Shown: positions 5,944 through 53,216 of the stretch, piece by piece
Layout of the letters: every line of letters begins with the position of its first letter
Position numbering within the stretch: the first letter of the stretch is position 1
DNA from: Dictyostelium discoideum
Taxonomy: Eukaryota
DNA length: 64,000 bases
Assembly (NCBI GenBank): GCA_000004695.1
Contig: CM000155.2
Coordinates: forward strand, 672,001-736,000
Direction of reading: 5' to 3'
Notes under the pieces: model-generated
Told to the model about the DNA's origin: nothing
What the model saw: only the letters and a program-made list of their open reading frames with translations
The model's database searches: none
Position numbers and translations under genes: made by a program

Positions 5944-6056
5944 TTTTAAAGAAGAGTGGATAGAAGAAGGAGGGTTTTTGCCAATTATTTTAAAGTTTCA
6001 TATAATTGCAACATCAAAAAATAAATAAAAAAATATAAAATGTAAAATTTAAATGG

Positions 6057-6097
<41 letters not shown>

Positions 6098-8075: not shown

Positions 8076-9051
8076 TCAGAGAGCAGTTTTCTTATAATTG
8101 TCTACTATTGTCTGAAGTGGATAAACTCTTAAAACTATTGAGAGATGATTCATATTCACTATATCAGAGTTGAATTGTGGTTGATAATCATCATCTCCAA
8201 TATAATAACGTCTAATGCCCTCTATATCAAAATACAATAAGTTATATGATGACTGAATCATGATTTTATATTCATTAATTCTATCTTCGTCATCTCCTAG
8301 AAGATCTATTATAAAAAATCTTCTAAATTTTGATGCAACATTTTTGTAATTTTCTAAAATTATACCAGATTTTTTGAAAACAAATTCCATTAGACCTACA
8401 CTATCAACTGTCATTGTTCCTTGTGTATTTTGATGTTTATATCCCTCATATCTATTATTCTTAAAATGAATTCTTTTTTCCAAAGTGTACCCAGCCTTCA
8501 ATAATATTGTAAACAATGCCTTGTTGGGATTGGGTATGAATGGCTGAATAATCATCTTTATAAACTTGAGCGATTATAAAATGTACCTTGTCACCCAATT
8601 TTTGTGCTTCAGAACATGATAAACAGAGATCACCAATCAAATGAGGAAGAGTTCCTTTTTTAAATGAACTATTAGGCATTGACCAATATTTTTGAATATT
8701 TTTCATTTGATTCATGTATTTTTCTTGCATCTAATCCAAAAATAACTTTGCATTGAGAATTTATTAAAAATTTAATATTTTCAATTGTCAACAAACAGTT
8801 TTCACTTTTATTATCATCTTTTGTTCCACAATATTCCTTAATACATTTGAAGATTTTAACTCCAGTTTCTTTAAGTACATCTCCACAATCTTTGAATTCA
8901 TTAAAAACAGTTTCACACACATAAATCTGAAGCGGTTATTTTTAAAAATTGATTATCATTTGTATAAAGATGTTGAAAATGAGAAATTTCCTTCACCAAC
9001 AAATAATATTTTATGATGTCTCTGCTTTACATTTTGGAATTTGATTTTTAA

Positions 9052-9087
<36 letters not shown>

Positions 9088-9200
9088 ATTTAAAATGGTT
9101 AATCTAAAATAATTTGGAAATTAAATATATTAATTAAATAACTACTTTGTATCAGATTTATAGACTGTTTTAGAAATTTCTGTTATAATTTCTATATCTG
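8076..9200 (-). pseudogene. DUF2431/Bmt5-like family, copy 3; multiply disrupted
   Basis: The body is split into three frames (track ORFs 8672..8920, 8461..8730, 8076..8555). The exon-1 donor has decayed to GTAGTT (9121-9200) and the exon-2 acceptor region is deleted. Confidence 0.6.
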
Positions 9201-9610
9201 GTTGAGGTGTATTCATTTTCAAATATATATTTTATTTGATTGGAATTTATTAAATTATAAAGTAAAAAATTTAAAAAAAAAAACTTTTAACAATAGTTAT
9301 TTTTTTTTTTTTTTAAAATTTAATTTTTTTAAAATAAATTTATTTTAATAATTCTCAGATTTGTGAGAAAAAAAAATAAAATAAAAAAATAAAAATAAAT
9401 TCTAAAAATAATTATCAAATGTTTTATTTTTATTTTTTTATTTTTATTTTTTTTTTCTCATAATCTGAGAAAAAAGATTTTTTCCCCACCCGATTTATCA
9501 ATTAAATCAAAATATTTTAATAATTGATTAATGGGGGAAAAAAAAAATAAAAAAAAAAAAAAAATTTTATTTATTTAATTTTTTTAAACTTTTTTTATTT
9601 TTTTTTTTTT

Positions 9611-12151
9611 TTAGAATCTGTTTTTAACACCACTTAAAAAATAATCATAAATTATAGAATCATTATTATCCTTAAAATATTGATTACAAAGCTCTACAAA
9701 TAAAGTTGGTCTTTTAATTGATTCAAAAAATTTGAGATTTGTGGCAGTGTCTAAAGAAATCAAATTTGAATATGATACTGAAATTAACTCTTCAGCATAT
9801 TTAAATAATAAATTATTAACCAATGATTTTAATAAATCACCAAATGAATTCTTGAAACTACCACATGAACAATTCCTTCCAAAAATAAATTCAAATGAGA
9901 ATATATTTGGTAATAAATAATTTCTAATTTGATAAGAAATTGAATTATTATTATTATTATTATTAAGAGTGACAGGAGGTGTTTGAATATTTGAATATTG
10001 TTTATTACAATCATAAAATCTACTATAAGGGATAGTAGTTTCGTGTGGAAATGATAGTATATATTTTGTAAACTTTGGAGATCTAATATGAAGAAAATAA
10101 AATGTTTCATATAATCCAGGTTCACTGAACCAACTTGGGTAACCAGTATTTCCATTATTAATATATTGGTGTACTGATTCCATCATTTCAATTGTAAAAC
10201 CTTTATGTTGAATTAATTTTCTATAAAGATGTTGAATCATTATGTTAATACCATTACTAAAAGGCACATATTCTTTAAATCTATCATAAAATGATTTTAT
10301 TAGAGTGATCATTGCAGTAATATCGGTAGCAACTTTACCATCACCATTACCATTATTACTATCATCATCACCATAATGATATATTATACGATTAGCTCCA
10401 TATCCATGTTTGAAAATGATTGCTTTAGTATTAATTGAAGGATTATAAGATTCAACTAAATCATCGAATATATTTGAATCAAATTTAACCTTTTTACAAC
10501 AATTATTTAATAAAAATTGTAATTGAATTAAATCCAATTTAAAAATTGAATTTACAATAATTTCTTGAATCTCTTTAATTTTGAAATTCTCTTCAATTTT
10601 AAATTCTAAAAATGCTGCTTCTGTTGCTGATGATGATGATGATTGTGATGATTTATAATATCGAACTAATTGATTATAAAATCTTTTTAAATTTTCATTT
10701 GTAAAACTTTTAAATTTTGATTGATTTAAATAATTTAATAATTTAATAATTTGTTTAATTGGAGTATTTGGTAAAATGAAATCATCATCATCATTATCAT
10801 TATCATTATCATTAGATTGAAAGTCTAAAACTTTAATATTTAATGAATCTATAATTTTCAAATTATTTAAATCACATTGTTGGATTGATTTCTTGAATAG
10901 GTATCTAAATATATACTCTTTTGATTGTTGCTCTACTTGTATTGAATTCTCTTTGCCTTTTAAATAAAATGATTGAATTGATTTAAAAGAATTTAATTGA
11001 CCTGTTACTTCTTTACTATCATTATTATTATTATTATTATTATTACTATTATTATTATTAAAATTATATGCATATTGAATTATTTGAAAATCAGTAAAAA
11101 CAATAGAATGATCATTTAATAATACTGATAAAATAACTTTATTTTCAAATGAAATTAACCAATTTATAATTAATTTATCAGATATTATTAATGAATAAGA
11201 TTGTTGTTTTTCTAAATTTTGATTATTATTATTATTTTTAATATATTTTAAAATTGGAAACATATGAAATTTCTTTAAATTCATTTTCTTTTTATATTCA
11301 TTATAAAAATTAATTATAAATGGTATTGAAATTGATGGTTTACTTAATTTAATATATCTTAAAAATGAAATTAAATAAGATTCATCAGAACCATCATTTT
11401 TATCTTTAAATTCATCTTTATTATCTTTGAATGCATTTAAATAATGATCACCATAATAAAATTCATCAAGTTCATCTTTACATTGATGAAATTCATCAAT
11501 TGATTCATTATATTTTAAAATGTAATCTTTATATAATTCTATTTGTTTTGTTTCAATAATTATAAATTTTTGTAATTTTTTTAATTTATATTTTTCAATA
11601 TCACAACTACTACCACTACTACCACTTTTACTACCACTACTACTACCACTACTACCACTACTATTGCTACTGATTTTTTTAATTTTATTATTAATTTTAT
11701 CTAATTTTGAATCAAGTGGTTTAATTGGTTTATTTAAAACATGGATTAAATTTGTTCTATGTGTAAATAATAATTCATCAAATGATTGATTAATTGTTAA
11801 ATTAAATGGTTTAGTGACGAAAAGACGATTTGTAAAGATTGATAAATCATAGATTTTATTTAATAAATTATAATTTTCAAAATCATATATTTTTCCAAAT
11901 GAAAAACTATTTTTTTCATCATTACATTTTGAATCGTATAAACCACTATTAAATAAGAAAAATTCTAATAATTGTTCTCTACTTTCTTCTCTATTCTTTA
12001 AAATTAATGATATTAATGTTTTATTTCCAATAAATGGTTCAACTTTTTCAATTTTACCATATTGTTGAATTTGAATTTTTATAAATTCTTTTATAAATTC
12101 GATACTTGAATATTTTAAAACATATTGTAAATTTGATGGTAAAACTTTCAT
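9611..12151 (-). CDS. Large low-complexity hypothetical protein (846-aa ORF; N-terminus probably extends upstream)
   Basis: One continuous ORF with Asn, Ser/Gly and Asp runs. The frame stays open upstream of the first Met, through NNNIEKKLFTDFDLIKLSIKSNRIKIFKLLISEPYS, into the (AAT)n tract. Confidence 0.55.
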   Translation of the reverse strand: MKVLPSNLQYVLKYSSIEFIKEFIKIQIQQYGKIEKVEPFIGNKTLISLILKNREESREQLLEFFLFNSGLYDSKCNDEKNSFSFGKIYDFENYNLLNKIYDLSIFTNRLFVTKPFNLTINQSFDELLFTHRTNLIHVLNKPIKPLDSKLDKINNKIKKISSNSSGSSGSSSGSKSGSSGSSCDIEKYKLKKLQKFIIIETKQIELYKDYILKYNESIDEFHQCKDELDEFYYGDHYLNAFKDNKDEFKDKNDGSDESYLISFLRYIKLSKPSISIPFIINFYNEYKKKMNLKKFHMFPILKYIKNNNNNQNLEKQQSYSLIISDKLIINWLISFENKVILSVLLNDHSIVFTDFQIIQYAYNFNNNNSNNNNNNNNDSKEVTGQLNSFKSIQSFYLKGKENSIQVEQQSKEYIFRYLFKKSIQQCDLNNLKIIDSLNIKVLDFQSNDNDNDNDDDDFILPNTPIKQIIKLLNYLNQSKFKSFTNENLKRFYNQLVRYYKSSQSSSSSATEAAFLEFKIEENFKIKEIQEIIVNSIFKLDLIQLQFLLNNCCKKVKFDSNIFDDLVESYNPSINTKAIIFKHGYGANRIIYHYGDDDSNNGNGDGKVATDITAMITLIKSFYDRFKEYVPFSNGINIMIQHLYRKLIQHKGFTIEMMESVHQYINNGNTGYPSWFSEPGLYETFYFLHIRSPKFTKYILSFPHETTIPYSRFYDCNKQYSNIQTPPVTLNNNNNNNSISYQIRNYLLPNIFSFEFIFGRNCSCGSFKNSFGDLLKSLVNNLLFKYAEELISVSYSNLISLDTATNLKFFESIKRPTLFVELCNQYFKDNNDSIIYDYFLSGVKNRF

Positions 12152-12240
12152 TGAATAAGGCTCACTTATTAATAATTTAAAAATTTTAATTCTATTTGAT
12201 TTAATTGATAATTTAATTAAATCAAAATCAGTAAATAATT

Positions 12241-12737
<497 letters not shown>

Positions 12738-13439
12738 CTTTTTTTTTTTTTTAGATTTAATATTTATTATTTATATAATTCTTGTGTGAAAAAAAAAAAA
12801 AAAAAAAAAAAATGAAAAAAAAAAAAAAAAAATTTGAAAAAAAAAAAAAATTGAAAAAAAAATGAAAAAGATTTAAAAAAAATGAAAAAAAATCAAAAAA
12901 TCAAAAAAAAAAAAAAATTCAAAATCTTGCTTTTGATTGGTTGCTTTCATAAATTCGAATTTTTGGGACATAACGTTTCATAAATAAGAAATTACCAAAA
13001 AAAAAAAAAAAAAAAAAAAAACCGTACCTTTTTATACCCAAAAATATTTTCAAAAATATTATTGTTTTTTTTAAAAAAAAAAATAAATAAATAATTAAAA
13101 AAAAAATCTTGTTTCCTTGGGAAATTAATTAATTTTTATTCTCGTTTTTTTTATTTTTTCAAAAATTCAAGTACCAATGAATATAATAAAAAAAAAAAAT
13201 CTTGTTTCCTTGGGAATTTTTTTTTTTTATTTTAATTTTTTTTTTTTTTTAATCCTGGTTGAAAATATTCTGATATTAAAAAAAATATAAATTCCTGCAT
13301 GTATTTTTTTTTTTTATTCTGTTCCAAAATTAACACATTTATATTCATAATAAATAAAAATAAAAAAAATAAATAAATGAGGGAATAAAAAATAAAAAAA
13401 ATTAATAAATCCCTAATAAAATAATTTAAAAAAAAAAAA

Positions 13440-13838
13440 ATGAAACTATTAATTTCATTAATATTAATTTTAACAATTTCATTTATTAATAATTGTAATT
13501 CTATTTTAGTAACTGAAAATGAATTTTACCAAAAAAAAAAGGAATCAAATAAAAATATTTGTTTCCCAAATGGTGATCCTAATATCAATGGTTTTAATAC
13601 AATAGTAAGAGGTGTTAGTTATAATTCAAATTATCCATCACCAAATGGTTTTGGTGAAAATCAAAATTCATATTATACAGAAAACCCGATGGATGTTGAT
13701 TTCTTAAACCAAAGATTCTCAGTTGATTTCTCTCTTCAATCAGAAACTGGAAGTGTTTTTGGTAAATTTTTGGCATTCACTCAAAATGTAAGTTTGTTTT
13801 ATTAATATTAATAATAATAATAATTTTCATAATATGGT

Positions 13839-13890
<52 letters not shown>

Positions 13891-14289
13891 CATTAGAAAA
13901 CTGAATATTATATTATTAGCAGAGGAGAAATAGGTAATGCAACTTGTTATATATCTAAAATGGATTACGAAATTAAATCATTATTAAAGTTATCATTTGC
14001 ATCAGATACTACACTTGGTCAAGTACCATGTGAATTTTATTCTATTGATTCCCCACTAAAACAAAATGATACATTTGAATTGGTTTTTGTTGACAAAAAT
14101 CATTGTTCATTGATGGCCTCAATTTCAACAATTGAAGCTTTAAACGAAGGTGAATCAATGGCAATTTATATGAATTATGTGCCATACTCAAAACCAGATT
14201 TCTATCAATTACCAACTGAATGTGAAAATCCAACTCCGATTGATCAAATTTTCAGACCAAAATTATTAAATCTATTCGCTAAATACTAA
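13440..14289 (+). CDS. Secreted hypothetical protein (about 246 aa), two exons
   Basis: Signal peptide MKLLISLILILTISFINNCNS. Exon 1 is 13440..13787 (donor AAT|GTAAGT). The intron is 13788..13896 (poly-T then cattag). Exon 2 is 13897..14289, in phase 0. Confidence 0.6.
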
Positions 14290-14425
14290 ATATATAAATA
14301 TATATATATAATATATATATATTTATTATTTATATATATTTAGTATTTATCATTTATTTACTTTATATTTTAAATATAATAATAAAACCATATAGGATGA
14401 ATTATTTATTTATTTTTTTATTTAT

Positions 14426-15098
14426 TTATTTTCTTTTCTTTTTATTTACAGGTTGAGGAGTATCATTAAAGTTATATTCTTCTAAATAGTCCATATCTGG
14501 TTTAATACCAAAACTTGTATCGAAATCACTTGGACGAATATTATATTTTGAATCACAAAATTGTCTTAAAGATGATATGTTATCAGTGTATCTATTAACG
14601 GCAGCGATTGCAATTTTAATATCTCTCTTTTTATCATCAATTAATGATGAATCTGCATATAACAATAATTCTTCTTTAAAACTTTTATTATCATCTTTTA
14701 ATGTTTGTAATTTTTCTAAATTTTTTGTTCTTGTTTCCTAAATATTTATTATTATTATTTTTGGTTAATATAAATTAATTTATTATTATTAATTTATTAT
14801 CTAAACAATACATACAGATTCAACTCTTTCACTTTTTAATTGTTCAATTTTTTTAGTTTCTGATTGTATCCTTTCTTTTGTTTCAGATAATAATTTAGTT
14901 TGTTCAATTATTTTATCTTTTTTTGAATCAAATTCAAAACTTGGGAATGACCAATAAAAATTTGATGATCCCATTTTATCTGTATTTACAACACCATCAT
15001 CTATTAACATTTGTAATGTTTCTTTACATTGAACTTGTGCTAATAAAAAGTAAAAAATAAAATATAAGTTAAATATAAATTTATAAATAACAATAATG

Positions 15099-15134
<36 letters not shown>

Positions 15135-15387
15135 TTACTCATTCCTGTATACTTTGAAGCTTCTGATTCTACATCTTTACTTGAATATATTGTTGACTAA
15201 TTATTTATTAAATTATAATTAGTATATATATATATATATATTTATTTTTGTTGTTATAGTATATAGATTTCTCTCTCTCCTCTCTTTGATTGCTAATGTT
15301 AATGAGCATACATACATTAGAGTGGAAGAATTCTTTTAATTTTTCTTTTTTTTCTTCTGGTGACATACCCTTTCTTCTTGTTGCCAT
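14426..15387 (-). CDS. mnd1: Meiotic nuclear division protein 1 (MND1) homologue, four exons, about 221 aa
   Basis: Exons are 15387..15316 (MATRRKGMSPEEKKEKLKEFFHSN, donor GTATGT), 15196..15139, 15039..14816 (QVQCKETLQMLIDDGVVNTDKMGSSNFYWSFPS) and 14737..14426 (...AIAAVNRYTDNISSLRQFCDSKYNIRPSDFDTSFGIKPDMDYL). It is collinear with the MND1 sequence I recall ([50 protein letters not shown]...RTFGIPEDFDYI). Confidence 0.8.
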
Positions 15388-15884
15388 CTTTATTTATTAT
15401 TTATATATTACAATATTATTTTATTTTTTAAATTTATCTATTTACAATTTGTTTTAAAAGTATAATTCAAAAAAAAAAAAAAATAAAATAAAATAATTTT
15501 CATTTTTTTTTTTTTTTTAATTTTCCTTTTTTTCACTTTTTTCAAAGAAAAAAAATAATTCCCCAAAAAAAAAAAAAAAAAGTAAGTGGTGTTATCGATA
15601 ACAATTAAATAACTCCAACCATATGATTTGTTTTTTTTTTTTTTTTTTTCTGATATATGAAATAAAAAATGAAAAATCAATAATCCTCAAACAAAAATAA
15701 AAAAAAAATAAAAAAAATGGTTTTTTAAAGTTTTATTTATTTCTTTTTATTAAACTTTAAGATGAAATTTTGTATACTATAAAAGAAATAATCATTAAAA
15801 TATTTTTAAAAAATCTCCTTTTTCATAAAACCATGAATCCCAAAAGAGAAATCAACAGATTTGCTAACTAATTTTTGTTTCCTG

Positions 15885-15915
<31 letters not shown>

Positions 15916-16163
15916 TTTTTTTTTTTTTGAAATTTTACAATTCTAATTATTTCCCGCCAAAATTTTTTAAAAATTTTTATAATTTTTTTTTGACAAAAAA
16001 AAAAAAAAAAAAAAAAAAAATCATTTTATTTTTATTTTGTTATTTATATGAATCTTTATGTAAATATAGGTTTTTTTTTTTTTTTTTTTCCCCTTTTAAA
16101 AAATTCATATTGAAAAGGGTATAGTTAAACAAAATAAAACAAAATAAAACAAAATAACCAAAT
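15388..16163. promoter_or_regulatory. Shared 776-bp divergent intergenic region between mnd1 (minus) and smc1 (plus)
   Basis: The two start codons face away from each other across an AT-rich spacer with long A/T runs. No motif was tested. Confidence 0.3.
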
Positions 16164-40313: not shown

Positions 40314-41111
40314 TTATAAAATTAAAAATTTAATAATTAATAAAACTATTGTTGTAAAAATAAATAATGGTGAGACTGAATAATAACCAATTCTTTCATT
40401 TTCTAAATACTCTTCAATTGTTACATTTAAACCTTGTTTGAATGTATATTGTGGTTTGAAACCTAATTCTCTTTTTGCACGTTCATTACTATAGATACGA
40501 TCTTCTTCCATTGCTGACAAAGTTGCTGCTTTAAATAGGAAGGGTTTTCTACTACTAAATGAATACATGAGCAATCCCAATACTCTAATGGCCGGGAAAC
40601 AAATTGATGCGGGTAATTTTAAACGTGGCTTCATTCTATTCAATTTTTCATTTAAGAAAATGATCGCTTCTTTATAGGTTAAACCTTTATCTGGTGAAAT
40701 TATATAGGTATGTGGTAATCCATCAGTATCATCAGTTGCTAATTTCTCTTTATGAATTGATAACATAATTGATTGAATGAAATCATCAATATGTGTATAC
40801 ATGATATTACCATTGGCAAATGATGGAATGAAAAATAAAATACCATATGACACTGATTGTATCAATTCAAATATACTAAATTGATCATCTTTTCCAAAAA
40901 TTCCAGTTGGTCTTAAAATAATCGTATCCAATCCATACTTTTTCTCGTAACGTCTAACATGATCCTCTGCTAATCTCTTGGTTTCACCATAATAATAACT
41001 TGGATGTGAATATGGGTCATCTAATTCTGATAATGGTATACCTGTAATTGGTTTTTTACCTCCCATAGTTTCAGTTGTTGAACAATAAATAAACCTTCTA
41101 ATTAATGATGA

Positions 41112-41198
<87 letters not shown>

Positions 41199-41687
41199 TA
41201 TATTATTTATATTATTTATATTATTATTATTTATATTATTATTATTATTATTTACACTATTCATTTTTGGAGATGAATTTAAAATTGTTGATGTACATGA
41301 TGCTTTTAATAAATTTTCTGTACCAATTACATTGGTTTTATGAATATTTGAATAATCAATTGAATTCCTAGGATAAAAGTCCATCATTGATGCTAAATGA
41401 ATTATTACCTTTATTTGATTATTTGTGATTATTGATTTTAAAAATTCGATACATTTTGATTGTGAAGTGACTGATGATTGTAAATCAACAAAATCACCAA
41501 TAATTAAATTAAAATTTTTATATTTTTCAATTAATTCTTTAATAAATTCACTATGACTTGATTTTTCTCTAACTAATGCATACACGTTATTATTTTTAGT
41601 TGAATCATCTTCAAGTAAAACTTTTATTAAATTACTTCCAACATATCCTGTTAATCCAGTTATTAATATATTTTCATTTTGAATCAT
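40314..41687 (-). CDS. Extended-SDR (NAD-dependent epimerase/dehydratase or 3beta-HSD-like) protein with a poly-Asn insert and C-terminal TM
   Basis: ILITGLTGYVGSNL (GxxGxxG) and a catalytic YGETK (YxxxK). An (AAT)n tract at 41105-41260 encodes Asn runs. The C-terminus is hydrophobic (LFIFTTIVLLIIKFLIL). Confidence 0.6.
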
Positions 41688-42428
41688 TTTTTTTTTTTTA
41701 TTTAATTTATATATATAAATTTATAGTTATTAATTTATTAATTGAATGTTTTTTTTATATTATTACTACAAAAATAATAACCACTCCCTTTTGATGATAT
41801 AATTTTTTTTTTTTTTTAATGAAATTAAAAATTAAAAATTTTTATTATTTTTTTTTTATTTTTTTATTAATTTTTTTTTTTTTATGAAATTATTTTTATT
41901 TTTATTTTATTTTTATTTTTTTATTTTTTATTTTTTTTTTCACAAATAGTAATAATGCGAACTAAATTGGGGAATCATTTGAAATTGAGGAATTAAAAAA
42001 AAAAATAAATAAAAAAATATGATTATACTATAAATGAAAAGAAAAAACATTTTATTACCAAATAAAAAAACTCAAAGAGGAAATTTATTTATATTTTTTT
42101 TTTTTTTATAAAAATAAATATTCCTTTTTTTTCATTTTCATTTTTTTTTTATTTTTTTATTTTTTTATTTTTTTTTTTAAAAAATTTCATACAGATCCTC
42201 AAATTATATTATCATTCATAAATAAACAATAACAAATAAACAAATAAAATAAATAAATAAATAAATAAATTCTATTTACTCACATATACATAAACAAATA
42301 ATACGTATTTCTTAAAAGATCTATTCACATAAACAAATATATTATAATATAATAATTAATAATTATTTGAAATTGTTTTTAAATTTTTTATTCATTGTGG
42401 GTTTTGTTTTTTTTTTTTTTATTATAAT

Positions 42429-44752
42429 ATGAATAATATTTTTGCATACAAAGAGATTGAATCACCAATTGATGATCAAATTTGTAAAGACTATAAAACA
42501 AAATATGCAAACCCTTCAATACCAATTATAATTGATAATGGGTCCTATCAATGTAGAGCAGGTTTTGCAAATGATATATCGCCAAAATGTAATAGATCAA
42601 TTATAATAATAATAAATAAATAAAGATATAATTTATGTTGAAACATTTATATAAAAAAACATAACTTATTAATTTTTTTTTATTTTCTGAAAAACAATAG
42701 TAATATTTAGATCATTAGTTGGTAAAGTTAAAAGTACATCAAGTCCAATTGTTGGTAATTCATTAAAAGAAGGTGATATTTCAAGATTAACAATAAAGAG
42801 TCCATTTGACTCAAATTTATTAGTTCACCCACCATCACAAGAGAGTATATTTGATTATATATTCCATAAATTTGGTATTGAAAATGAAATTGAAAATCCT
42901 GTTTTAATTACTGAACCAACTTCAAATCCAACATTTTGTAGAAAATGTAAGTTTTTTTTTTTTTTTTTTTTTTTTTAATTAATTAATTGATTGATTTATT
43001 AATTTATTTTTTTTTTTTAAAAAAAAAAAAAGACATGAGTGAATTATTATTTGAATGTTATAATATAAAATCAGTTGTTTATGGTATTGATTCATTATTT
43101 TCATTTTATGGACAAAGAGATCAATTTAAAGATGGTGGTAAAAATTCATTAATTATTGGATCAAGTTTTAATACAACTCATATATATAATGTTCAAAATT
43201 ATAATGTTTCTCATCAACAAACTAAAAGAATAAATATAGGTGGTGGTGCATCAACTGATTATCTTAGAAAATTAATTCATTTAAAATATCCTAAACATAA
43301 ATCTTATTTTACTCAAAATTATACAAATGTAAGTTTATTAATTTTTATTATTATTATTATTATTATTAAAATTATTAAATTATTTATTTTAAAAATTAGA
43401 AAATTAAAGAAGAACATTGTTATGTTTCACAAGGTCAATATATTGAAGAATTAAAAGAATTTGAAAATGATCAATTAGCAAAAGAGAAATCAGTTATAAT
43501 TCAATTACCTTATCAAGAGATTGATTTTGAGAAATTAGAAGAGGAAAGACAAAGAAAAATTCAAAATCGAAAAGATTTAGGTGCGAAATTAAGGGAGTTG
43601 GCAGATAAGAAACGTTTAGAAAAGAAAACGGAATTAGAGGATAAATTAGCTTCATTGGAATCAATATTAGCATTAAAGACTACAAATGTTGAAGAGTTTC
43701 AACAAACATTGAAATCAAAATCCTATGCAACTGAAAAGGATTTAATTAGGGATATAGATGATTTAAAAGATAAACTATTTGGAAAGAAGAAAGAGAGTGA
43801 ACAAGTTGAAGACACTGAAGAATTCCCATTGTTATTTATTGCAGATTCAGAGTTGAATGCTGATCAATTAAAAGAAAAGAAAAAACAAAGACAATTAAAG
43901 AGTATGAAAGATGGTAGATTAGCACAAAAGAGAAAAAGAGATGAAGAGAAAGAGAAAGAGAAAGAAAAGGAGGAGGAACGTGATCGTCAAGAGGAAGAAT
44001 CATTCTTGAAGGATCCTGAACATTATTTAAAGGATCTTCATAGTAGAAAATCGAAAATTTTGGAAAAAAGAGAAGCAAGACAAAAGCAAAAACAAAAAGC
44101 CAATATAGTTCAAAGAAATTCAAGGCTAAGAACAATTGTAAATCCAACCAATCATGGTAACTATGGTGAAAAGGGTGAAGAGGTCGAAGATCCTGAAGAG
44201 GCAGAAGAATCAAGAGAAATGGCAATTCTTGATAAACTATTGAATAAATTCGATCCAACTAGTATTAGTAGTGCCATCGTTAGTCATGATGATCAATTCC
44301 CAATAGGTGAATATCATACCGCTGAAGATTTTCAAGTTTCATTGGGCGTTGAAAGAATTAAATGTCCTGAAACTTTATTTCAACCAAAAGCAATCATTGG
44401 TGTGGATCAAATGGGTTTGGTTGAGGCTATTATCTCTTCAATTCTCTCCCAATTGCCAGTGGATACACGTAAATTGGTAACAGAGAATATCTTCCTCACT
44501 GGTGGTAATGTAAATACTAAACACTTTAAAGATAGAATTCATTATGAAATTCAACAAATTCGTGAACCATATTCACCTTTAACCATCTTAAAATCAAAAG
44601 ACTCTCAATTGGATGCTTGGTTAGGTGCTAGAAAATGGTGTTTAGATAATCAAGATAATTGGTCAAATGTTTCAATCTCTAAACAAGATTATCAAGAAAA
44701 AGGTTATGATTATATTAAAAGTCATTTTGCTTCCAATCTTTCTTTAAATTAA
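42429..44752 (+). CDS. arpE: Actin-related protein 5 (Arp5, INO80 complex), four exons, about 684 aa
   Basis: Exons are 42429..42588 (IIIDNGSYQCRAGFANDISPK, donor GTAATA), 42701..42946 (IFRSLVGKVK...SPFDSNLLVHPP...VLITEPTSNPTFCRK, donor GTAAGT), 43033..43328 (MSELLFECYNIKSVVYGIDSLFSF...KRINIGGGASTDYLRKLIHLKYP) and 43400..44752 (EEHCYVSQGQYIEEL... a long charged insert ...NIFLTGGNVN...LDAWLGARKWCL). It is collinear with the Arp5 sequence I recall. Confidence 0.85.
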
Positions 44753-44978
44753 TAAAAATAAAAAAAATAAAAAAAAAATAAACTATATAGTATTATAAAA
44801 AATATAGTATTATAAAAAATAGTTTTCTATTAAAAAAAAAAAAAAAATAATAATAATAATAATAATAATAAATAGGAAATTTTTGGTTCTTTTTTTTTTT
44901 ATTTATTTATTTATTTATTTATTTCATTAAATATATTATTTACATTGGATCGATCCTTGTTTATTTTTTTCTTTCTTT

Positions 44979-45785
44979 TTAATCTTTCATTTCTAATGCA
45001 ACATATGATGCATTGTTTTGAGCTGTTGAAATTCTACCTGTTCTAAATCTTTTATATAATATAATACAAACAAATACTACACATGCACCGCCTATTACAT
45101 ATACTATAATTGTACTATTGAAAACTAAATATATTTTTTTACATATATATAATATTATATATATATGGGAGTGTTAATAAATTAGTTTAATAAACACACA
45201 TCAAAAAAGACAATAAAATTTTTTAAAAAAAAAAAACCTACTTGAATTATCACTGTATGGATCTTCTTCATCTCCAAGATGAGTAGGTCCCGTTGGATCT
45301 GATGTTGTAGGTTTTGTGGATTCTGTTGTTGATGTTGTTGATGTTGTTGGTATTGTTGTTGTTGTTGTTGTTGGTATTGTTGTTGTTGTTGTTGTTGGTA
45401 TTGTTGTTGTTGTTGTTGTTGGTATTGTTGTTGTTGTTGTTGTTGTTGTTGGTATTGTTGTTGTTGTTGTTGTTGTTGTGGATGTTTCTGCTGGTTCTGT
45501 TGCTTGTGATCCTCCTGACGTTGAGGTTGTTGTTGTTGTTGTGGGTGTTTCTGCTGGTTCTGTTGCTTGTGATCCTCCTGATGTTGAGGTTGTTGTTGTT
45601 GTTGTGGGTGCTGATGTTGATGATGTTGTTGTTGTGGGTGCTGAAGATGATGATGGTGTTGTTGGTAGTGGATGAAAAGTTAAACTATTCGAATCATCAC
45701 TATCATCACCTAGAGTGGATACTGAATAATGAGATATGAATACCAGAAGCAGGCATAATAAAAAAAATAATCGTTTTGACTTCAT
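44979..45785 (-). CDS. Mucin-like type I membrane protein (signal peptide, Thr-rich repeats, TM, short tail), two exons
   Basis: Exon 1 is 45785..45242 (MKSKRLFFLLCLLLVFISHYSVSTLG..., then perfect repeats SGGSQATEPAE[TS]PTTTTTT and TTTTTTIP x5, donor GTAGGT). The intron ends atttag. Exon 2 is 45124..44979 (FNSTIIVYVIGGACVVFVCIILYKRFRTGRISTAQNNASYVALEMKD*). The track ORF starts further upstream at 45842, but the signal peptide fits the Met at 45785. Confidence 0.6.
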
Positions 45786-46096
45786 CCTTAAATTTATGAA
45801 AAAAAAAAAATATATATTGGGTTTGAAACTGACACTGTTCAAAAAAAAGAAAAAAAAATAGAAAAAAAAAAAAAAAGAAAAAAAAAAAAAATAAAAAAAT
45901 AAAATTAAAAATAAAAATAAAAATAAAAATAAAAATTAAAAATCTACGTTGCGAAAAACAGGAATATTATATTTAATTTTTTTTTTTTTTTATTTTTATT
46001 TTTTTTAATTTTAATTTTATTTTCATTCCCAATTTGTTTGATCTGCCTAGATGTAACAAATTCCCCAAAACTACTTTTTACCATAAAATTTTTTTC

Positions 46097-46128
<32 letters not shown>

Positions 46129-46261
46129 CGATATAAAAAAAAAAAAAAATTAAAATAAAAAATAAAAATAAAAATAAAATTAAAAAAATAATAAATCAAC
46201 TTGTTGTTGCTTTCACTGTTTATTAAATATTTAATTTCAAATTCTATATCACCATTTATTG

Positions 46262-46500
46262 TTTCAAAAAAGTGGTGAAATTAGAAAAAATACAAACCTA
46301 TATTGAAAATAATAAATATAAAATTTAATATTAAATAAATACCTGTGTCGGAGAAAATGCTGAGAACAATATACAAAAACATAATTCTAAAATTATAATA
46401 TTTTATTATTTTTATACTGTATTGATTTTGAACGAGAATAATAATAATCACTCTCTTCTTGAGTAATAACACCATCACCAACAACAATCAACAATAATAA
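46262..46500 (-). pseudogene. Partial third copy (5' flank plus exon 1) of the UNC93-like gene at 47367..48881
   Basis: 46330-46480 is about 85% identical to 48700-48850, including ...ttctccgacacaggtattt (the exon-1 end plus donor). No downstream exons follow. Unit boundaries are marked by tttcactgtttattaaatatttaatt at 46215-46245 and 47313-47340. Confidence 0.55.
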
Positions 46501-46651
46501 TTAATAAAAATTTATATTATAGTTCACAAAAGTTAAACTGTTTATTTTTTTGCTTTTTAGTTTTTGTGATAGATACGGTAACTGATAACCGGTAAGGGGT
46601 TTCCGGTGTTTAATGTGTATAGGTAATGGTAACCGGATATAAAAGTGGTAG

Positions 46652-47160
46652 TTATTCATTGTCACTCTCATCATTTTCTTCTTCTTGTTCTTCATCTTCT
46701 TCTTCTGATTCACTTTCTCCTTCTGAATCGGTTAGCCCAGTTGTTTCAATTTCTACATCTACACCCCTTGGCACGTCACATAATCTAACTAGCTTACCAT
46801 TAAGTATTCCCGCTTTCATAGTTTTTAATATACGATCACGGTACTCCGGATCCCTATTCCGCCATTCTAAACAATCGTTGTATGTCTGGCAGCCAATTGA
46901 CATTATGGTGGGTTTGGGCGACGTTTGAATATTTTACAATCATCATAGTAATCATTAACTGCCTTGAGATATCCTTCGAAAGTTATCCTATAAATTTCTT
47001 TCATTTTTTTTTACATTCTTTTGTACAGAGTCTATTTATCTCAGGGAATCTATCCTGGTCAAATAATTTATCATCGTATAAAAAGGGGCCCGATTCTTTA
47101 AGGTCTTCTATTGAAAAGCGGTCATGTCCGCATCCACCTACTTTTCTCAACATCATTTTG
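46652..47160 (-). pseudogene. GC-richer ~650-bp segment with three collinear ORF pieces in different frames (unknown protein, acidic tail)
   Basis: Piece 1 is 47160..47008 (MMLRKVGGCGHDRFSIEDLKESGPFLYDDKLFDQDRFPEINRLCTKECKKK*). Piece 2 is 47006..46905 (MKEIYRITFEGYLKAVNDYYDDCKIFKRRPNPP*), one base off after an A9 run. Piece 3 is 46903..46652 (MSIGCQTYNDCLEWRNRDPEYRDRILKTMKAGILNGKLVRLCDVPRGVDVEIETTG, then an acidic tail). Composition is locally GC-richer (ccggtaacc, gggcccgattc). Confidence 0.35.
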
Positions 47161-47366
47161 TTGTGTTTAAATTGAGTAAAAATAAAAAAAATAAAAAATA
47201 AAAAAATAAAAAAATAAAAAAATAAAAAACAAATTAAAAAAATAAATTAAAAAAAAAAAATAATAAACACAGAATATAACATTAAGAAAATTTATAATAA
47301 TCAAATGATGTTGTTTTCACTGTTTATTAAATATTTAATTATTTTTTTATTTTTTTATTTTTTTTT

Positions 47367-48881
47367 TTAAACACTTTTTGAAAAATTATCAGCGAAAATG
47401 AAAAATACACAAGAAATGATTACTAAACAATCTAAAACAAAGACATTTTCAAATAATGAAGCATATGGACCATATATAAAAGCAACAGCAGTTGCAGTTG
47501 ATTGAACAAATTTGAAAACACCAACAGCAGCTTCACCATTTGTTGGATAAAGTACACCAAGTAAAGAATATAATTGAGTATTGAAACCCGCATCTGAAAA
47601 TCCTAATAATGCACTACCAATAAAATAACAAAGTATTTTATATTCACCATAATTATTATTATTATTAATTGAGAAATATATTATTTTTGATTGATTAACT
47701 AAAATAATCAAAACTGTACCAATGATAGAAGAAATTGTTGAAATTAAAATTAAAATTTTTCTACCAATTTTAAATGATAATTTACCTAAAATAAAACTTG
47801 ATAATGCATCAAAAAATCCAAAAACACTCATAACATAACCAACCCATTCAACACCAATTAAAGATGGAAATACACCAAAAAAAAAAGTTTGACTTATACC
47901 ACTATAAAGCAATGATGGAATTAATAATTGAATTGGTTTATCTTTAAATAGAATAATTATAGATTTAAAAATATTTTTTATAGATAAATCATCATCGTCA
48001 TGATTTTCTTGATTTCCTTTTGTTTCTTCATCTTGAATATTTATTGATTTAATAGTTTTTTTAATTTTAGGAGTAATTGGACATTTTAAAAATAAAAATC
48101 CGATAATCGGCATTAAAGAAATTCCCATAAAAATAGTAAATAAGATGCTATTTGAAAGTCCAGCTTTATTAATTAATGTTGCTGATCCTATATTTCCAAT
48201 GATTTGATCTGTTTGAAATAATGCAAAAAACTATTATTTAAATAATAAATTAGAATTTATATGTAAAAAAAAAAAAAATAATAAAAATTTATATACAACT
48301 TACTAAACCTGTATTAGCGCCAATAGTTTCTTCTGTTGAATATTTAATTATTAATGAACCTTGTGCATTCCATAATATTGCACCGCCAAATCCAACTAAA
48401 ATTGATGAAATATATAATGATGGTTGAGTAACATAAATATTTGATCCAATATATATAGCATATGATAATGTTCCTATAATTAATGATATTTTTTCACCAA
48501 ATTTTGAAACAATAAATGGTGATATAAAATTTGAAATTGATAAAGATGAATATAATACAGCCAATGTATAATATCCCAAATTTTGATTAATTGTTGTTTG
48601 TAAAATCTTTTTTAAAAAAAAAAAATAATTATATAAATTAGAATATATACACACCTTTACTGAAAAAAATAAAAATAAATATTTAATATTAAATAAATAA
48701 ATACTTGTGTCGGAGAAAATGCTGAAAATAATATACAAAAACATAATCCTAAAATTATAATATTTATTTTATTATTATTTTTATTCTGTATTGATTTTGA
48801 ATGAGAATAATAATCATTCTCTTCTTGATGATGATGATCATTTAGTAATGGAGTTTGTAATAAATCTTCTTTATTTTTCAT
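47367..48881 (-). CDS. UNC93-like protein MFSD11 homologue (MFS), paralogue C, three exons, about 447 aa
   Basis: Exons are 48881..48705 (MKNKEDLLQTPLLND...ILFSAFSPTQ, donor GTATTT), 48606..48304 (ILQTTINQNLGYYTLAVLY...VGFGGAILWNAQGSLIIKYSTEETIGANTGL, donor GTAAGT) and 48230..47367 (FFALFQTDQIIGNIGSATL...FGFFDALSSFILGKLSFKIGRK...). The GxGxAxLWxAQG motif is the UNC93/MFSD11 hallmark. Confidence 0.75.
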
Positions 48882-49304
48882 TTTTTATTTTTTATTTTTA
48901 TTTTTTTTATTACGACATCATCAATAATCTTATCTTTTAAAAAATAAAAAAAAAACTACTTTTTACCAAAAAATGAAGAAAAAGAATAGAAAAAAAAAAA
49001 TAGAATCATAATGATTCTCTTTTTTTTTTTTTTTCGTGATATTTTCACTCCTATTCTCCTGCAATCACTTTTGAAAAAAAAAAATTAAAAAAATAAAAAA
49101 ATAAAAAAAAAAAATATCTTTTTTGATTTTTAAAAATATCTTTTCTGAATTATCATTTGTTTTTTTTTTTTTTTTTTTTTTATAAAACGATAAATAATTT
49201 AAAATAAATGAAAAAAAAGGTATAAAGAATATTGGGGGAAAAAATATTTTAATTTTATTTAAATTATATCTATATTATTTTCTTTTTCTATTTTTTTTTT
49301 TTTT

Positions 49305-50819
49305 TCAAACAGTTAACTCATCAATTGAAACTCTTTTTGAAAAATTATCAGCAAACATGAATAATACACAAGATAAAATTACTAAAGAACCAACGATAAT
49401 GACATTATCAAATAATGTAGCATATGGACCATAGACAAAGGCAGCAGCAGTTGCAGTTGACTGAACGAATTTGAAAACACCGGCAGCAGCTTCACCTTTC
49501 TTTGGATAGATAACACCGATTAATGCGTATAATTGAGTATTGAAGCCGGCATCTGCCAAACCTAATAAAGCGGCAACTATGAAATAGTATGGTATTCTCT
49601 CTGATTGTGTTGAGACTAATCTGTCCAATAGGATACATAAAACAGTACCAGAAATACAAAACACGGTACTAAAGACCACAAGTATCTTTCTACCGAAAAT
49701 ATCAGACAATTTACCCATGATCATACTGCCAGCAGCATCGCAAAAACCAAATACAGCCATCACATAACCAATCCATTCCTTACCAAGTAATTGAGGGAAT
49801 ACACCAAAAAAGAATGACTGACTAATACCACTATAAAGCAATGGTGCTACTAATAATTGAATTGGTCTATCTTTAAATAAAACTATAGTTGATAATAAAC
49901 GATCCCTAATTGACATAGTTTGATTCTCTTTCTCCACTATTTGACCTTTATCATTTACTTTAACTGGTTTACCCAATATTGCAAATCCCAATATCGACAA
50001 TAATGATACACCTAAAAATATTAAAAATAAAACCTCATTTTGTAAACCTGCTTTATCAATCAATGCTGCTGTACCTAAATTACCAATAATTTGATTAATT
50101 TGAAATAATGCAAAAAACTAATAAATAAAATCTATTAATAACACTTATATTTTTAATTATTATTATTATTATTATTATTATTATTTATTCTAAAATGAAA
50201 AAAAAAAAACATACTAAACCAGTATTTGCGCCAATTGTACTCTCTGTTGAACATTGAATTACAAAAGAACCTTGAGCAGTCCATAAAATAGCACCACCAA
50301 TACCAAGTAAAACTGACGCACCATATAATGTTGGTATTGTAACTTTAATATTTGCTGCGATATATGCTGAATATGTTAATGTACCAACTATTAATGATAA
50401 TCTTTCTCCTAATTTTAAAATTACAAATGGTGATATAAAATTTGTTACTGATAAAAATGCATATAATACTGCTAATGAATCTGACCCGAGATTTTTATTA
50501 ATTGTAGTTTGTAATTCCTAAAATAATAATACATACATATGTATATATATATATACACATATAAACACACAAATTATTATTATTAATATGATATGTGTAA
50601 TTTTGAAAAAGAAACTCTTGAAGTTGGATTATAATATTATAAAAATTAAATAAATACCTGAGTTGGAGAAAATGCTGAAAATAAAATACAAAAACTTAAT
50701 CCTAAAACTATAATATTATATTTACTTCTATTTCTAAATGATGGTTTAGAATATTGATAATCACTATTAAGTAAAGGCTGTACTTCACCTTCACCTCTTC
50801 CTTCATTAATTGGTTTCAT
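49305..50819 (-). CDS. UNC93-like protein MFSD11 homologue (MFS), paralogue D, three exons, about 425 aa
   Basis: Exons are 50819..50658 (MKPINEGRGEGEVQPLLNSDYQYSK...ILFSAFSPTQ, donor GTATTT), 50517..50215 (ELQTTINKNLG...GIGGAILWTAQGSFVIQCSTESTIGANTGL, donor GTATGT) and 50117..49305. Exon phases and lengths match paralogue C. Confidence 0.75.
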
Positions 50820-52245
50820 TTTATTTTTGATTTAAATTTTGTTTTTTTTTTTTTATTATTTCCTATTATTATTGTTATTATATGCTATTAAAAAAAAAAA
50901 AGGTGAAAATGAAAATCAAAAATTGAATATATATACAATTTGTTTAATGATCGGGATTTGATAAGTTTATAAAACAATTGAAAAATAAAAAAAATAAAAA
51001 AAATAAAAAAATAAAAATATAAAAAAAATAAAAAAAAAAATTTCAATTGTTTGTGTGTGGTATCAAACAATTCAATTTGCCAGGAATAAAAATTAAAAAA
51101 ATTAAAAAAAATAAAAAATAAAAATAAAAAAATAAAAAAATTTGATCAAATTTAAATTTATCATTGACGGACCAATTACAAAATCTATTTTTTAAAAAAA
51201 AAAAAGATGTTTATGAAAAAAAAAAAAATAATAAATAAATAATAATAATTAATCAAAAATAAAAAATAAAATAAAATTTAAAAAAAAAAAATAAATTAAA
51301 AAATTAAAATAAAAAGAAAATTTTAAATGAATAGAGAAAATAAAACATACACAGATTGTTGATTTTTTCTATTTAATATAAAATATTTTTTTTTTTTTTT
51401 TTGTAAAAAAATTAAAAAAAAAGAAAAAAAAAAAAAAAACAGATGTGCAACTTTGACAACCTATAAAATTTTATTTTCAAGGGTACCACCCTTTAAAAAA
51501 ATTTTTTTTTTATTTAAATTTACAATTTGAAATGTTTATAAAAAAAATAAAAAAATAAAAAAATAAAAAAATAAAAATAAAATTAAAAAAAGTCAAAAAA
51601 AAAAAAGCTTTTAATTTCTGGTATAAACCAGAAGCAAAAATTTGAGTTCTCTCTTTTTTTTAAAAAAATTATTACAAAAATAAAAAAAAAATAAAAATAA
51701 TTTCATACTCAATATTTTCCCAATACCTCTGGCAAAAAAAAATTAAAAAAATATCTCACTCTGATGTCATCCTAAATTTTTTTTTTTTATTAGGTCGCAA
51801 GGTCGAAAAGTTTTTAATTGAAAAAACTGTAAAATATAAAAAATAAAAAAAAAAATAAAAAAAATAAAAAATAAAAAAAAAATAAAAAAATTAAAAAGTA
51901 AAAATTTGAGAGAAAGCTGACACAACGAATCACATTTTTTTTATTCTTTTCTTCAAAACTTTTCAAGGTAAATGTTTATCTTTGACAAAAAAAAAAAAAA
52001 TAAAAAATAAAAAAAAAAAAACCTCATTAATAAAATTAACCCCACATTATCACCCCACACAAAGATCTATCTATTTTAACATTATTTATTAATTTTATTT
52101 TATTTTATTATTTTTATTATTTTTTTTTTTTTTAAAAAACAATAATTAGCTATAATAATTTATTTCATATTATTTTATTATTTTTTTTTTTTAAAATAAA
52201 TAAATTTAGTTATTTAATTTATTTTAAATAGTTGTTTTAATAAAT

Positions 52246-52269
52246 AATAATAATAATAATAATAATAAT

Positions 52270-52350
<81 letters not shown>
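52246..52350. repeat. (AAT)n microsatellite
   Basis: Seen directly. It gives the spurious poly-Leu ORF 52224..52451 on the minus strand. Confidence 0.9.
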
Positions 52351-52353
<3 letters not shown>

Positions 52354-52491
52354 TTACATACATTCATACACATATAGTTAATTAAATTAAATAAAAGAAT
52401 CATATATGTAAAATAAATTTTTTTTACATATAAAAAAACAAAACAAAACAAAACAAAAAAAAAAAAAAAAAAAAACCAAATATAAAAAGTT

Positions 52492-53216
52492 ATGGTACAA
52501 CCAACAACAACAGCAGCAGCAACAACAACAACAACAGCAACAACAGATTACATAGAGAATGATGATTCAATAATTAGCCAATCACAATCATCATTTGTAT
52601 CATCGGTATCATCGACTCCAACATGGACATTTTCAGTTACTAATCAACAAAATTCAAACAATAATAATAATAATAATTTAAGTAATAATAAAAATAATAA
52701 TATACCAATAATAGCGTCAACTAGAAAGATAGAAATAGTAGATAATTTTGAAAACAAAGATAAAGAAAAAGAAGACAATCAATACGATGATGATAATGAC
52801 AATGATAATGATGACGATAATAAAGAATCAATAGAAATTTCAGAAAAGAATATTAAAGTTGAAAAAATAGCATTATCAAAGAAAATTATAAATGGTTTAA
52901 AATATTGTGGTAAAAGAGTAATAAGATTTAAACCATTAACATGGGTAAAAATTTTTATTTTAATCTGTATGATTACTTTAATATGTGTTGTTGTATTCAA
53001 ATTTAAACTTCAAGATCATTTCAAAGAATATTTAAAAAACCTTCAAGATTACGTCGATAAAGAAAAACATGGTTATCTCATTGGTGGTTTCATATATATG
53101 GGTGCTTTTATGTGTTTAATTATATTTTTAATACCTGTAACCATTCCAACAGTTTTGTAAGTTTAAATTAAAACATACAATATAAAAAGAGAGAGAGAGA
53201 GAGAGAGAGAGAAGAT

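Follow-up and report, generated by a model that had tools for sequence, protein, structure and literature searches.

A composite insertion with a dead copy of a Dictyostelium-only gene beside a conserved MFSD11-like gene pair in Dictyostelium discoideum

The window, as we call the whole 64,000-nt stretch of DNA analyzed here, comes from chromosome 6 of Dictyostelium discoideum AX4 and carries two neighboring genes on its minus strand, C and D. Gene C (DDB_G0291722; 47367-48881, with exons at 48881-48705, 48606-48304, and 48230-47367 in the splice model) encodes a protein of 447 aa, and gene D (DDB_G0291720; 49305-50819, with modeled exons at 50819-50658, 50517-50215, and 50117-49305) one of 425 aa. 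Both are intact UNC-93/MFSD11-like MFS genes, and their products match exactly the AX4 entries XP_629994.1/Q54E68 (C) and XP_629995.1/Q54E67 (D) of the protein collection. As the earlier note on this DNA had described, they are complete paralogues of three exons each, with identical phases (in C as in D, the two introns are phase 0) and with the hallmark motif, which reads GFGGAILWNAQG in C and GIGGAILWTAQG in D. The two proteins are 57% identical. Their full-length matches to the Pfam families UNC-93 (PF05978; for C, E 3e-53, 181.9 bits, profile positions 3-379 of 379; for D, E 6e-48, 164.3 bits) and MFS_1 (PF07690; 94.5 bits for C and 86.4 bits for D) lie above the gathering scores. Furthermore, the C/D tandem pair is kept in all seven genomes compared.

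The six Dictyostelium genomes other than AX4 have D and C only and lack the sequence of window positions ~46237-47298. At the orthologous locus L003, positions 3742-9546 align to window 53000-47350 and positions 9541-14700 to window 46208-41000. The same empty site was found at the loci L004 to L008, and 46462-47224 aligns in none of them. At those of the six loci where it is called, a small Thr-rich gene follows gene C at a distance of ~270-490 bp; none is called in L004. The "three-unit tandem array" of the earlier note is thus without support, since the six orthologous loci show two MFS genes and an empty site. We conclude that a composite insertion of ~1.1 kb, bracketed by a direct repeat, is present in the 3′ flank of gene C specifically in the AX4 lineage.

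The insert has three parts. The first is an inverted 48-bp scrap from exon 2 of gene C (46233-46280, plus strand; 91.7% identity to 48538-48492, E 2e-13). The second is a gene-C-like scrap of 185 nt on the minus strand (46278-46462), which comprises 70 nt of intron 1 and part of exon 1 and matches 48635-48828 with 85% identity if gaps are counted and 92% if only substitutions are (E 4.5e-60). Judged by these alignments, gene C is the source of both scraps. The third part (46461-47306, minus strand) derives from a gene unit that is dispersed in Dictyostelium; this copy measures 846 bp and is 82-86% identical to the non-syntenic loci L001, L002, and L010, which share no other part of the window. 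The copy is present once in the window and consists of ~150 bp of T-rich upstream sequence, an open reading frame (ORF), and ~190 bp of a conserved 3′ region with motifs of the type GGTAACCG.

A direct repeat (R) flanks the insert. Its left copy lies at 46194-46236 (gapless core 46202-46236), and its right copy, the duplicated target in the gene C 3′ flank, at 47299-47340 (gapless core 47306-47340). The copies are 91% identical over 43 nt (E 1e-10), with 33 of 35 positions identical in the gapless core at a spacing of 1104; the repeat is thus 35 nt long without gaps and extends to ~43-47 nt. At the empty sites of L003, L006, and L007, R is single copy. Read on the minus strand, gene C is followed by R, the block (the GC-richer segment at 46500-47170), exon 1, intron 1, the exon-2 scrap, and the other copy of R. 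An apparent homology between R and the upstream region of the unit was judged to be low-complexity similarity, apart from a stretch of ~12 nt at one junction (J4, below). A search of Rfam with 45900-47500 returned only a sub-threshold snoRNA match (18.5 bits, with the gathering score at 50).

These data change the picture of the supposed first MFS unit at 46200-46490. The similarity of ~85% to gene C holds, for 46278-46462 against 48635-48828, but the remnant is a partial exon 1 with 70 nt of intron 1 and not a "5′ flank plus exon 1." It lacks the first 53 nt of exon 1 including the ATG, its translation is broken by a stop and a frameshift, and the segment does not have the start codon, three exons, and open frame of a gene copy. 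Both C and D being minus-strand genes, the coordinates of a gene body would be lower than those of the exon-1 remnant; the block, which had been placed where this body should be, lies upstream (5′) of the remnant. Nor was it inserted into, or exchanged for, a third MFS copy; all that there is of such a unit, the scraps of 185 bp and 48 bp, belongs to the same insertion.

The ORF of the 846-bp unit (46652-47156, minus strand) is a pseudogene in three frames. Its three collinear pieces (47156-47001, 47004-46903, and 46903-46652) together give a collinear, gapless match to intact family proteins of ~160 aa. Six Dictyostelium protein clusters were matched collinearly (E 6e-92 to 1e-50), the best match being P0001 (89% identity, E 6e-92). 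With 79-89% identity to the full-length ~160-aa proteins P0001 to P0003 and with their motifs retained, the window copy belongs to this family; its acidic tail carries an in-frame expansion of 18 nt. According to the paralogue alignments, the first frameshift, between KECKKK and MKEIYR, lies in a run of nine A residues (A9; 47004-47012) where the intact paralogues have A10, and the second, between PDPPI and M, is a 1-nt deletion at 46905-46906 that changes CCACCAATAATG to CCACCATAATG. Both are 1-nt deletions relative to L001 and L002, and the reading frame is not intact. No product of this copy is recorded, its exact 83-aa ORF being absent from the protein collection.

The frameshifts are real, since an independent assembly (GCA_054883475.1) is 100% identical over 46150-47420, with the same A9 run and the same second frameshift. 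Elsewhere, this assembly does differ from the window (99.86% identity and 6 gap openings in 12 kb). At the paralogous locus L010, too, A10 has become A9, so the tract has slipped in at least two separate family copies and looks like a recurrent slippage or frameshift site of the family.

The GC content of the block is 34.6%, that of the ORF 36.6%, and the peak is 42.5% per 200 bp, compared to 23.4% in gene C and 21.1% in the window. The block therefore does exceed gene C and the window, as had been noticed, but its GC content is not exceptional: within the window it ranks at the 97th-99.5th percentile, a level that about nine further coding stretches attain, and the intact paralogues have the same value (35-37%). 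The homologues all come from dictyostelids, namely the D. discoideum complex, D. firmibasis, D. dimigraforme, relatives of the D. citrinum group, and D. purpureum, and no viral or PDB relative of the block was found in BFVD or the PDB, by sequence or by fold. With dictyostelid homologues and a GC content equal to that of the paralogues and within the host coding range, the block does not have the profile of horizontally acquired DNA. We conclude that it is a defunct copy, with two frameshifts, from a small Dictyostelium-only gene family, an instance of ordinary genome wear and tear. The earlier reading of three collinear minus-strand ORF pieces, one frame change falling in the A9 run, is borne out, and that of an inserted, decayed coding segment was right in outline, given the empty site in six genomes and the frameshifts. 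Other copies do exist, the block being multi-copy in the genus. Since the independent assembly has the same A9 run, the result that the earlier note named as a refutation, a single-copy block coding for a conserved housekeeping protein in a correct frame once this run is resequenced, was not obtained.

The family shares the pattern CxH...FP...CxxxCKxKM...YYxDxK...NGKxVRLC followed by an acidic tail, and C43, C47, and M51 are invariant in 22 members. In AX4, its members are DDB_G0268956, DDB_G0288733, DDB_G0268832, and DDB_G0293518. DDB_G0288421 is a further AX4 paralogue. We found no paper on the former four genes, and the family has no name. A profile search of 1.84 billion representatives returned dictyostelid family members only, besides two long proteins (P0050 and P0054); these scored through several short repeated stretches, as checked for P0050, and were read as low-complexity matches. 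Identity within the family falls to ~28%, D. purpureum included, and dN/dS between the intact paralogues L001 and L002 is 0.30. An ancient, diversified family with such a ratio behaves like a cellular gene family, and the sequences indicate that it is native and restricted to Dictyostelium, with its intact copies under purifying selection. Just upstream of the family unit, L001 and L002 carry a deoxynucleoside-kinase-like fragment.

No Pfam domain was found in the reconstructed protein at E up to 10 or in P0001 and P0004 at E up to 0.1, and a PDB sequence profile search with the family gave noise at best (E 0.36). The fold of the family, which is predicted with confidence (pLDDT 81, pTM 0.72), had no neighbor in the PDB or BFVD. 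The conserved Cys/His pattern might bind metal.

How did the insertion arise? Most likely, it goes back to a single DNA-templated accident. A break in the gene C 3′ flank would have started a repair or replication accident of the MMBIR/FoSTeS type, or synthesis-dependent repair with several template switches. In this process, 48 nt of the adjacent gene C exon 2 would have been copied in inverted orientation, then 185 nt of gene C intron 1 and exon 1, and then the 846 bp of an unlinked family paralogue together with its own upstream and downstream sequence. Finally, synthesis would have returned to the original flank ~35-47 nt behind its starting point, which would explain the flanking direct repeat. 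Today, the captured copy is a pseudogene that carries two 1-nt deletions, one of them in the A10 run.

Both the single event and the mechanism are inferred from the structure of the insert. It contains three templated segments, an inverted and an unlinked one among them, its site is empty in six genomes, and the junctions show overlaps of 4 nt (AATT, J1), 3 nt (AAA, J2), 2 nt (GA, J3), and ~8-12 nt (J4; donor ATAATAATCAAA, target ATAATTAATCAAA), of which only J4 is notable, overlaps of 2-4 nt being expected by chance in a genome with 79% A+T. For J3 and J4, the donor side is represented by the 82-86% identical paralogues from another strain and not by an AX4 donor, and the ~8% divergence since the event has blurred the junctions. 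The local pieces are about equally diverged: 6-9% between the two R copies, 8% between the inverted scrap and its source, and, counting substitutions alone, 7.7% between gene C and the exon 1/intron 1 scrap. This equal divergence (6-9%) is what argues for a single event, and it is the sole point in its favor. The exon 1/intron 1 scrap is about equally far (~8%) from gene C of AX4, L003, L006, and L007. The event thus dates from about the time at which those strains split off, with its polarity given by parsimony.

A stepwise history, the alternative nearest to the earlier note, would yield the same end product, and we regard it as unlikely. In it, a partial tandem duplication of gene C, with one breakpoint in exon 1 and the other where the 3′ flank ends, would have taken up a family copy as junction filler, and the duplicated body would later have been lost almost entirely through an internal deletion and an inversion. 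The order of the pieces on the minus strand is indeed the one expected for a tandem duplicate of C, and exon 1/intron 1 and R are all gene-C-like. However, this history needs at least two to three independent events at one spot instead of one, all local pieces are equally diverged, and no intermediate with a fuller third copy was seen in the genomes examined.

The single template-switching event faces one further objection, as in four loci the unit ends on its 3′ side within the same ~40 bp, which is more regular than random switching predicts. Family units at unrelated loci measure 0.85-1.7 kb, with nearly coincident 3′ ends. The ~160-aa family may conceivably be a selfish or otherwise unusual cassette that spreads by a defined yet unrecognized mechanism, with the chromosome 6 insertion as a fossil of one such spread. 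We hold this to be improbable, but it would fit the predicted fold without neighbors, the Cys/His pattern, the repeated A10-to-A9 change, and the recurring units with their near-coincident 3′ ends and, at L001 and L002, the kinase-like fragment.

We hold it quite improbable that a mobile element or a retrocopy (a non-autonomous DNA element or a product of TRE/LINE-mediated retroposition) inserted beside gene C and created the duplication, whether as the 846-bp unit itself or as its carrier. The dispersal of the unit over non-syntenic loci would fit, as would 3′ boundaries that nearly coincide while the 5′ extents vary and the direct repeat around the insert. But the search for TIRs and LTRs found only A/T low-complexity inverted pairs, and, at 35-47 bp, the flanking repeat would be a long target-site duplication, so that the TIRs plus short, fixed-length duplication of a DNA transposon or MITE are missing. 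The reconstructed protein, P0001, and P0004 showed no transposase, integrase, or reverse transcriptase domain in Pfam, and neither end of the insert, the 3′ junction at 46461 included, bears a poly(A) tail. The insert does have a flanking repeat, yet the ~150 bp of T-rich, promoter-like upstream DNA and the MFS intron fragment are incompatible with a processed mRNA copy. The age, diversity, and dN/dS of the family also speak against this origin, and the mobile segment considered in the earlier note is not upheld. TRE elements target tRNA genes; a scan found no tRNA genes in the window, and thus no target of the TRE type.

We consider it very unlikely that the insertion is ancestral and was lost precisely in the other lineages. 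The direct repeats of 35-47 bp could mediate such an excision by R-R recombination, leaving one R as at the empty sites. This would, however, take independent precise losses in several lineages, D. firmibasis and D. citrinum among them; the divergence between the R copies and between scrap and gene C (6-9%) is far below the 20-24% that separates AX4 from D. firmibasis and D. citrinum at this locus; and sampling so far points to outgroups without the insert and to its presence only in the AX4 lineage. Finally, a bacterial or viral origin of the block, or an assembly or sequencing artefact, is largely refuted and almost certainly wrong: the GC content above that of the immediate neighbors and a frameshift in a homopolymer might suggest it, but the homologues are all dictyostelid, BFVD and the PDB gave no match, the same GC content is found in the intact paralogues and attained by other coding regions in the window, and the independent assembly reproduces the region base for base.

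The main value of these results is a correction: the locus holds a conserved MFSD11-like pair and no three-gene array, nor is the GC-rich block foreign. Beyond this, it offers a clean, datable multi-template insertion that is fixed in the D. discoideum laboratory reference lineage and absent from six related genomes. The analysis also flags an unnamed, Dictyostelium-restricted family of small proteins that could merit the attention of dictyostelid genome curators.

Among known systems, C and D are full-length members of the UNC93-like/MFSD11 transporters (PF05978), while the supposed third member amounts to 233 bp of scraps within the insertion and is no gene copy. The transposons of Dictyostelium include the non-LTR elements TRE5 and TRE3, DIRS-1, Skipper, DDT, Tdd, and thug. 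Compared by their general features rather than against a repeat library, they resemble the unit in that it is dispersed, multi-copy, and flanked here by a direct repeat; unlike them, the insert has no TIRs, LTRs, or poly(A) and no reverse transcriptase, integrase, or transposase domain, and the window contains no tRNA genes.

Duplicated (non-processed) pseudogenes of lineage-specific families have been surveyed in dictyostelids (PMC8535579). The block is similar to these in being a DNA-level copy with both flanks that was disabled by frameshifts and has a Dictyostelium-restricted parent family, but this family lacks a name, a Pfam model, a solved structure, and any literature that we found. 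Studies of MMBIR and templated insertions describe exactly such multi-segment, partly inverted insertions joined by microhomology (PMC8421209, PMC5120786, PMC11724301). Shared with them are short segments from nearby and unlinked templates, one of them inverted, microhomology at the junctions, duplication of the recipient site, and the absence of transposon hallmarks. In contrast to those cases, the event considered here is an old, fixed germline event in an amoeba, its mechanism read from structure alone, and one of its templated segments (846 bp) comprises an entire small gene along with the flanks.

The window has a base composition of 21% G+C, with short introns and intergenic DNA consisting of A/T homopolymers. 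Two neighboring MFS genes are located on the minus strand, gene C (exons 48881-48705, 48606-48304, and 48230-47367; spliced product of 447 aa) and gene D (exons 50819-50658, 50517-50215, and 50117-49305; spliced product of 425 aa). Their products exactly match Dictyostelium discoideum AX4 DDB_G0291722 (XP_629994.1, Q54E68) and DDB_G0291720 (XP_629995.1, Q54E67), respectively, and are 57% identical to each other. Each aligns along the full length of the Pfam UNC-93 profile and also matches MFS_1. All introns are GT...AG and of phase 0, and the hallmark motif reads GFGGAILWNAQG in gene C and GIGGAILWTAQG in gene D. The splice models, the Pfam matches, and the exact AX4 matches confirmed the earlier note, which had described C and D as complete three-exon paralogues sharing exon phases and this motif.

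The earlier note had also counted a third MFS unit, disrupted by a GC-richer block (46500-47170). Self-comparison of the window, local alignment, and a repeat finder resolved three small pieces derived from gene C at 46190-46462. The first (46194-46236) is the left copy of a direct repeat, R, and is ~91% identical to 47299-47340, just 3' of the gene C stop codon; in the gapless core (46202-46236 versus 47306-47340; 1104 bp spacing), 33 of 35 positions are identical. The second is an inverted 48-nt scrap of exon 2 (46233-46280; ~92% identity to 48538-48492; E 2e-13). The third (46278-46462) consists of 70 nt of intron 1 and of exon 1 minus its first 53 nt, in a broken reading frame. It is 85% identical to 48635-48828 (92% by substitutions only), in agreement with the ~85% claimed for an exon 1 remnant; the exon 1 assignment holds except for those 53 nt, and the remnant includes intron 1, not the supposed 5' flank. 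With the MFS genes running on the minus strand, the block lies 5' of the exon 1 scrap and not in the place of a gene body, the reverse of the proposed geometry.

Orthologous loci were obtained via the gene C and D orthologues from six genomes: two other assemblies labelled "Dictyostelium discoideum" (L003 and L006), two of D. cf. discoideum (L007 and L008), D. citrinum (L005), and D. firmibasis (L004). All six have two MFS genes only and the gene order VTT-domain gene, D, C, small Thr-rich gene, actin-related gene, epimerase, with about 270 to 490 bp between gene C and the small gene (uncalled in L004). The exception is L008 (ACTFIZ), where a DDE_Tnp_4 transposase gene (14719-16023), downstream of the actin-related gene, takes the place of the epimerase/3-beta-HSD gene. 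None of the six loci aligned to window 46462-47224, R was present once at the empty sites (L003, L006, and L007), and the L003 alignment skips from window 47350 straight to 46208. Window ~46237-47298 thus corresponds to an AX4 lineage-specific insertion, made up of two gene C scraps and an 846-bp unit (46461-47306) with a copy of a small-protein gene; a target duplication of 35 to 47 bp is present on both sides. A three-unit MFS array is thus contradicted; an inserted, decayed, multicopy segment was correctly recognized, but with two MFS genes in the orthologous loci it did not enter a third. An ancestral insertion lost in the other lineages is argued against by the divergence of the pieces from their sources (R copies, 6 to 9%; inverted scrap, 8%; exon 1/intron 1 scrap, 7.7%), which is far below the about 20 to 24% between AX4 and D. 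citrinum or D. firmibasis at this locus.

L003 and L006 (locus-tag prefixes ACTFIW and ACTFIR) share only about 83 to 92% identity with AX4 over window 41000-53000. This divergence is well above that expected of conspecific isolates and may point to cryptic species or to a haplotype region of high divergence. Directly downstream of the insertion, at ~45075-45880 (minus strand), is a small two-exon gene. Its product combines a signal peptide with long repeats rich in Thr (PTTTTTTI...), which account for an extreme plus-strand G/T skew, and a C-terminal hydrophobic segment, and has 192 to 231 aa across genomes, presumably depending on repeat number.

The block contains three consecutive minus-strand ORF pieces (47156-47001, 47004-46903, and 46903-46652; frames 2, 1, and 0). 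Joined, they align collinearly and without gaps with hypothetical Dictyostelium proteins of ~160 aa: P0001 (89% identity; E 6e-92) and P0002 (84%) of D. cf. discoideum, and P0003 and P0004 of D. firmibasis (79% and 78%). DNA alignment with the nonsyntenic loci of P0001, P0002, and P0005 (L001, L002, and L010), which have only 46461-47306 in common with the window, located the lesions: A10 shortened to A9 at 47004-47012, and CCACCAATAATG changed to CCACCATAATG at about 46906. The acidic tail also has an 18-nt in-frame expansion. An independent assembly, GCA_054883475.1, is 100% identical to window 46150-47420, including the A9 at the previously noted frame change, yet elsewhere differs from the window (99.86% identity; 6 gap openings over 12 kb). 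This indicates that the frameshifts are real and that the window copy is a pseudogene. The tract (KECKKK|MKEIY) is likewise A9 in the unrelated locus L010 (~3990-4010), and seven proteins annotated as "111-aa" in five genomes start with the Met right after it, which suggests repeated homopolymer slippage at the A10 run. The ~150 bp 3' of the ORF stop (46500-46650) are conserved among the three paralogous loci, and motifs of the GGTAACCG/CCGGTAAC type recur there, the "ccggtaacc" strings of the first reading; an Rfam search of this region gave no match.

Searches with the family proteins revealed no Pfam domain and no sequence relative in the PDB. When 1.84 billion representative proteins were searched with a family profile, 19 matched at E <= 0.001, including AX4 DDB_G0288733, DDB_G0268832, and DDB_G0293518 along with four D. 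purpureum proteins; among those with source looked up, all that align over the conserved core are dictyostelid. Two long proteins, each scoring through seven short repeated stretches, were interpreted as low-complexity matches. The alignment of 22 members shows CxH...FP...CxxxCKxKM...YYxDxK...NGKxVRLC followed by the acidic tail. With a dN/dS of 0.30 between L001 and L002, purifying selection acts on the intact paralogues; for the window copy, the values against L001 and L002 are 0.39 and 0.68 (small counts). Judged from these searches, the family, which has no name, appears Dictyostelium-restricted, with the chromosome 6 copy as a new pseudogene member.

A few hundred base pairs upstream of the family gene, L001 (8947-9651) and L002 (9103-9640) have a deoxynucleoside-kinase-like fragment (MPPEIKIITDPIGSGKTT...) belonging to a duplicated segment common to both, and in the representative protein P0058 a similar N terminus is fused to the family's CKEKMKEIYRITF...YY.D motif. 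Just downstream of the L001 gene, on the opposite strand (10777-10941, minus), is a conserved basic 57-aa ORF (AX4 DDB_G0288421, MAEQEERRRLMQEESERRRLQRNRE...; proteins P0044 and P0045), which is fused to the family protein in annotation ACTFIY_011549 and is absent from the window.

For the block, a transposon and a foreign origin are both rejected. Horizontal acquisition had been proposed, but nothing suggests it: the looked-up core homologues are dictyostelid, and the ORF GC of 36.6% matches that of the intact paralogues (34 to 35%) and is reached by some nine further coding stretches in the window. The idea of a mobile element fared no better, as the insertion has neither TIRs nor LTRs and lacks a poly(A) tail; no tRNA gene was found near it. 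An mRNA intermediate is unlikely because the insert carries promoter-like DNA and an intron fragment.

The insertion combines several templated pieces, one local and inverted and one from an unlinked paralogue, with junction microhomology and a recipient-site duplication. The homologies flanking its four junctions overlap by 4 nt (AATT), 3 nt (AAA), 2 nt (GA), and about 8 to 12 nt, the last two judged against paralogous copies (82 to 86% identical) from another strain, standing in for the AX4 donor. We favor a single MMBIR/FoSTeS-type event, which would have copied the gene C scraps and the unlinked family unit into the 3' flank of gene C, although short overlaps are expected by chance alone in 79% A+T DNA. 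A stepwise origin, in which part of gene C was duplicated in tandem with filler DNA at the junction and an internal deletion and inversion followed, is less likely. There is a small probability that the unit was dispersed in a directed manner by an unrecognized mechanism, for which the 3' ends of the unit, within about 40 bp of one another at four loci, would speak. An insertion with an embedded pseudogene is ordinary in kind. In its multiple templates, inverted piece, microhomology, and recipient duplication, the AX4 insertion resembles MMBIR/FoSTeS-type templated insertions, for which the same signature is on record (PMC8421209, PMC5120786, PMC11724301).
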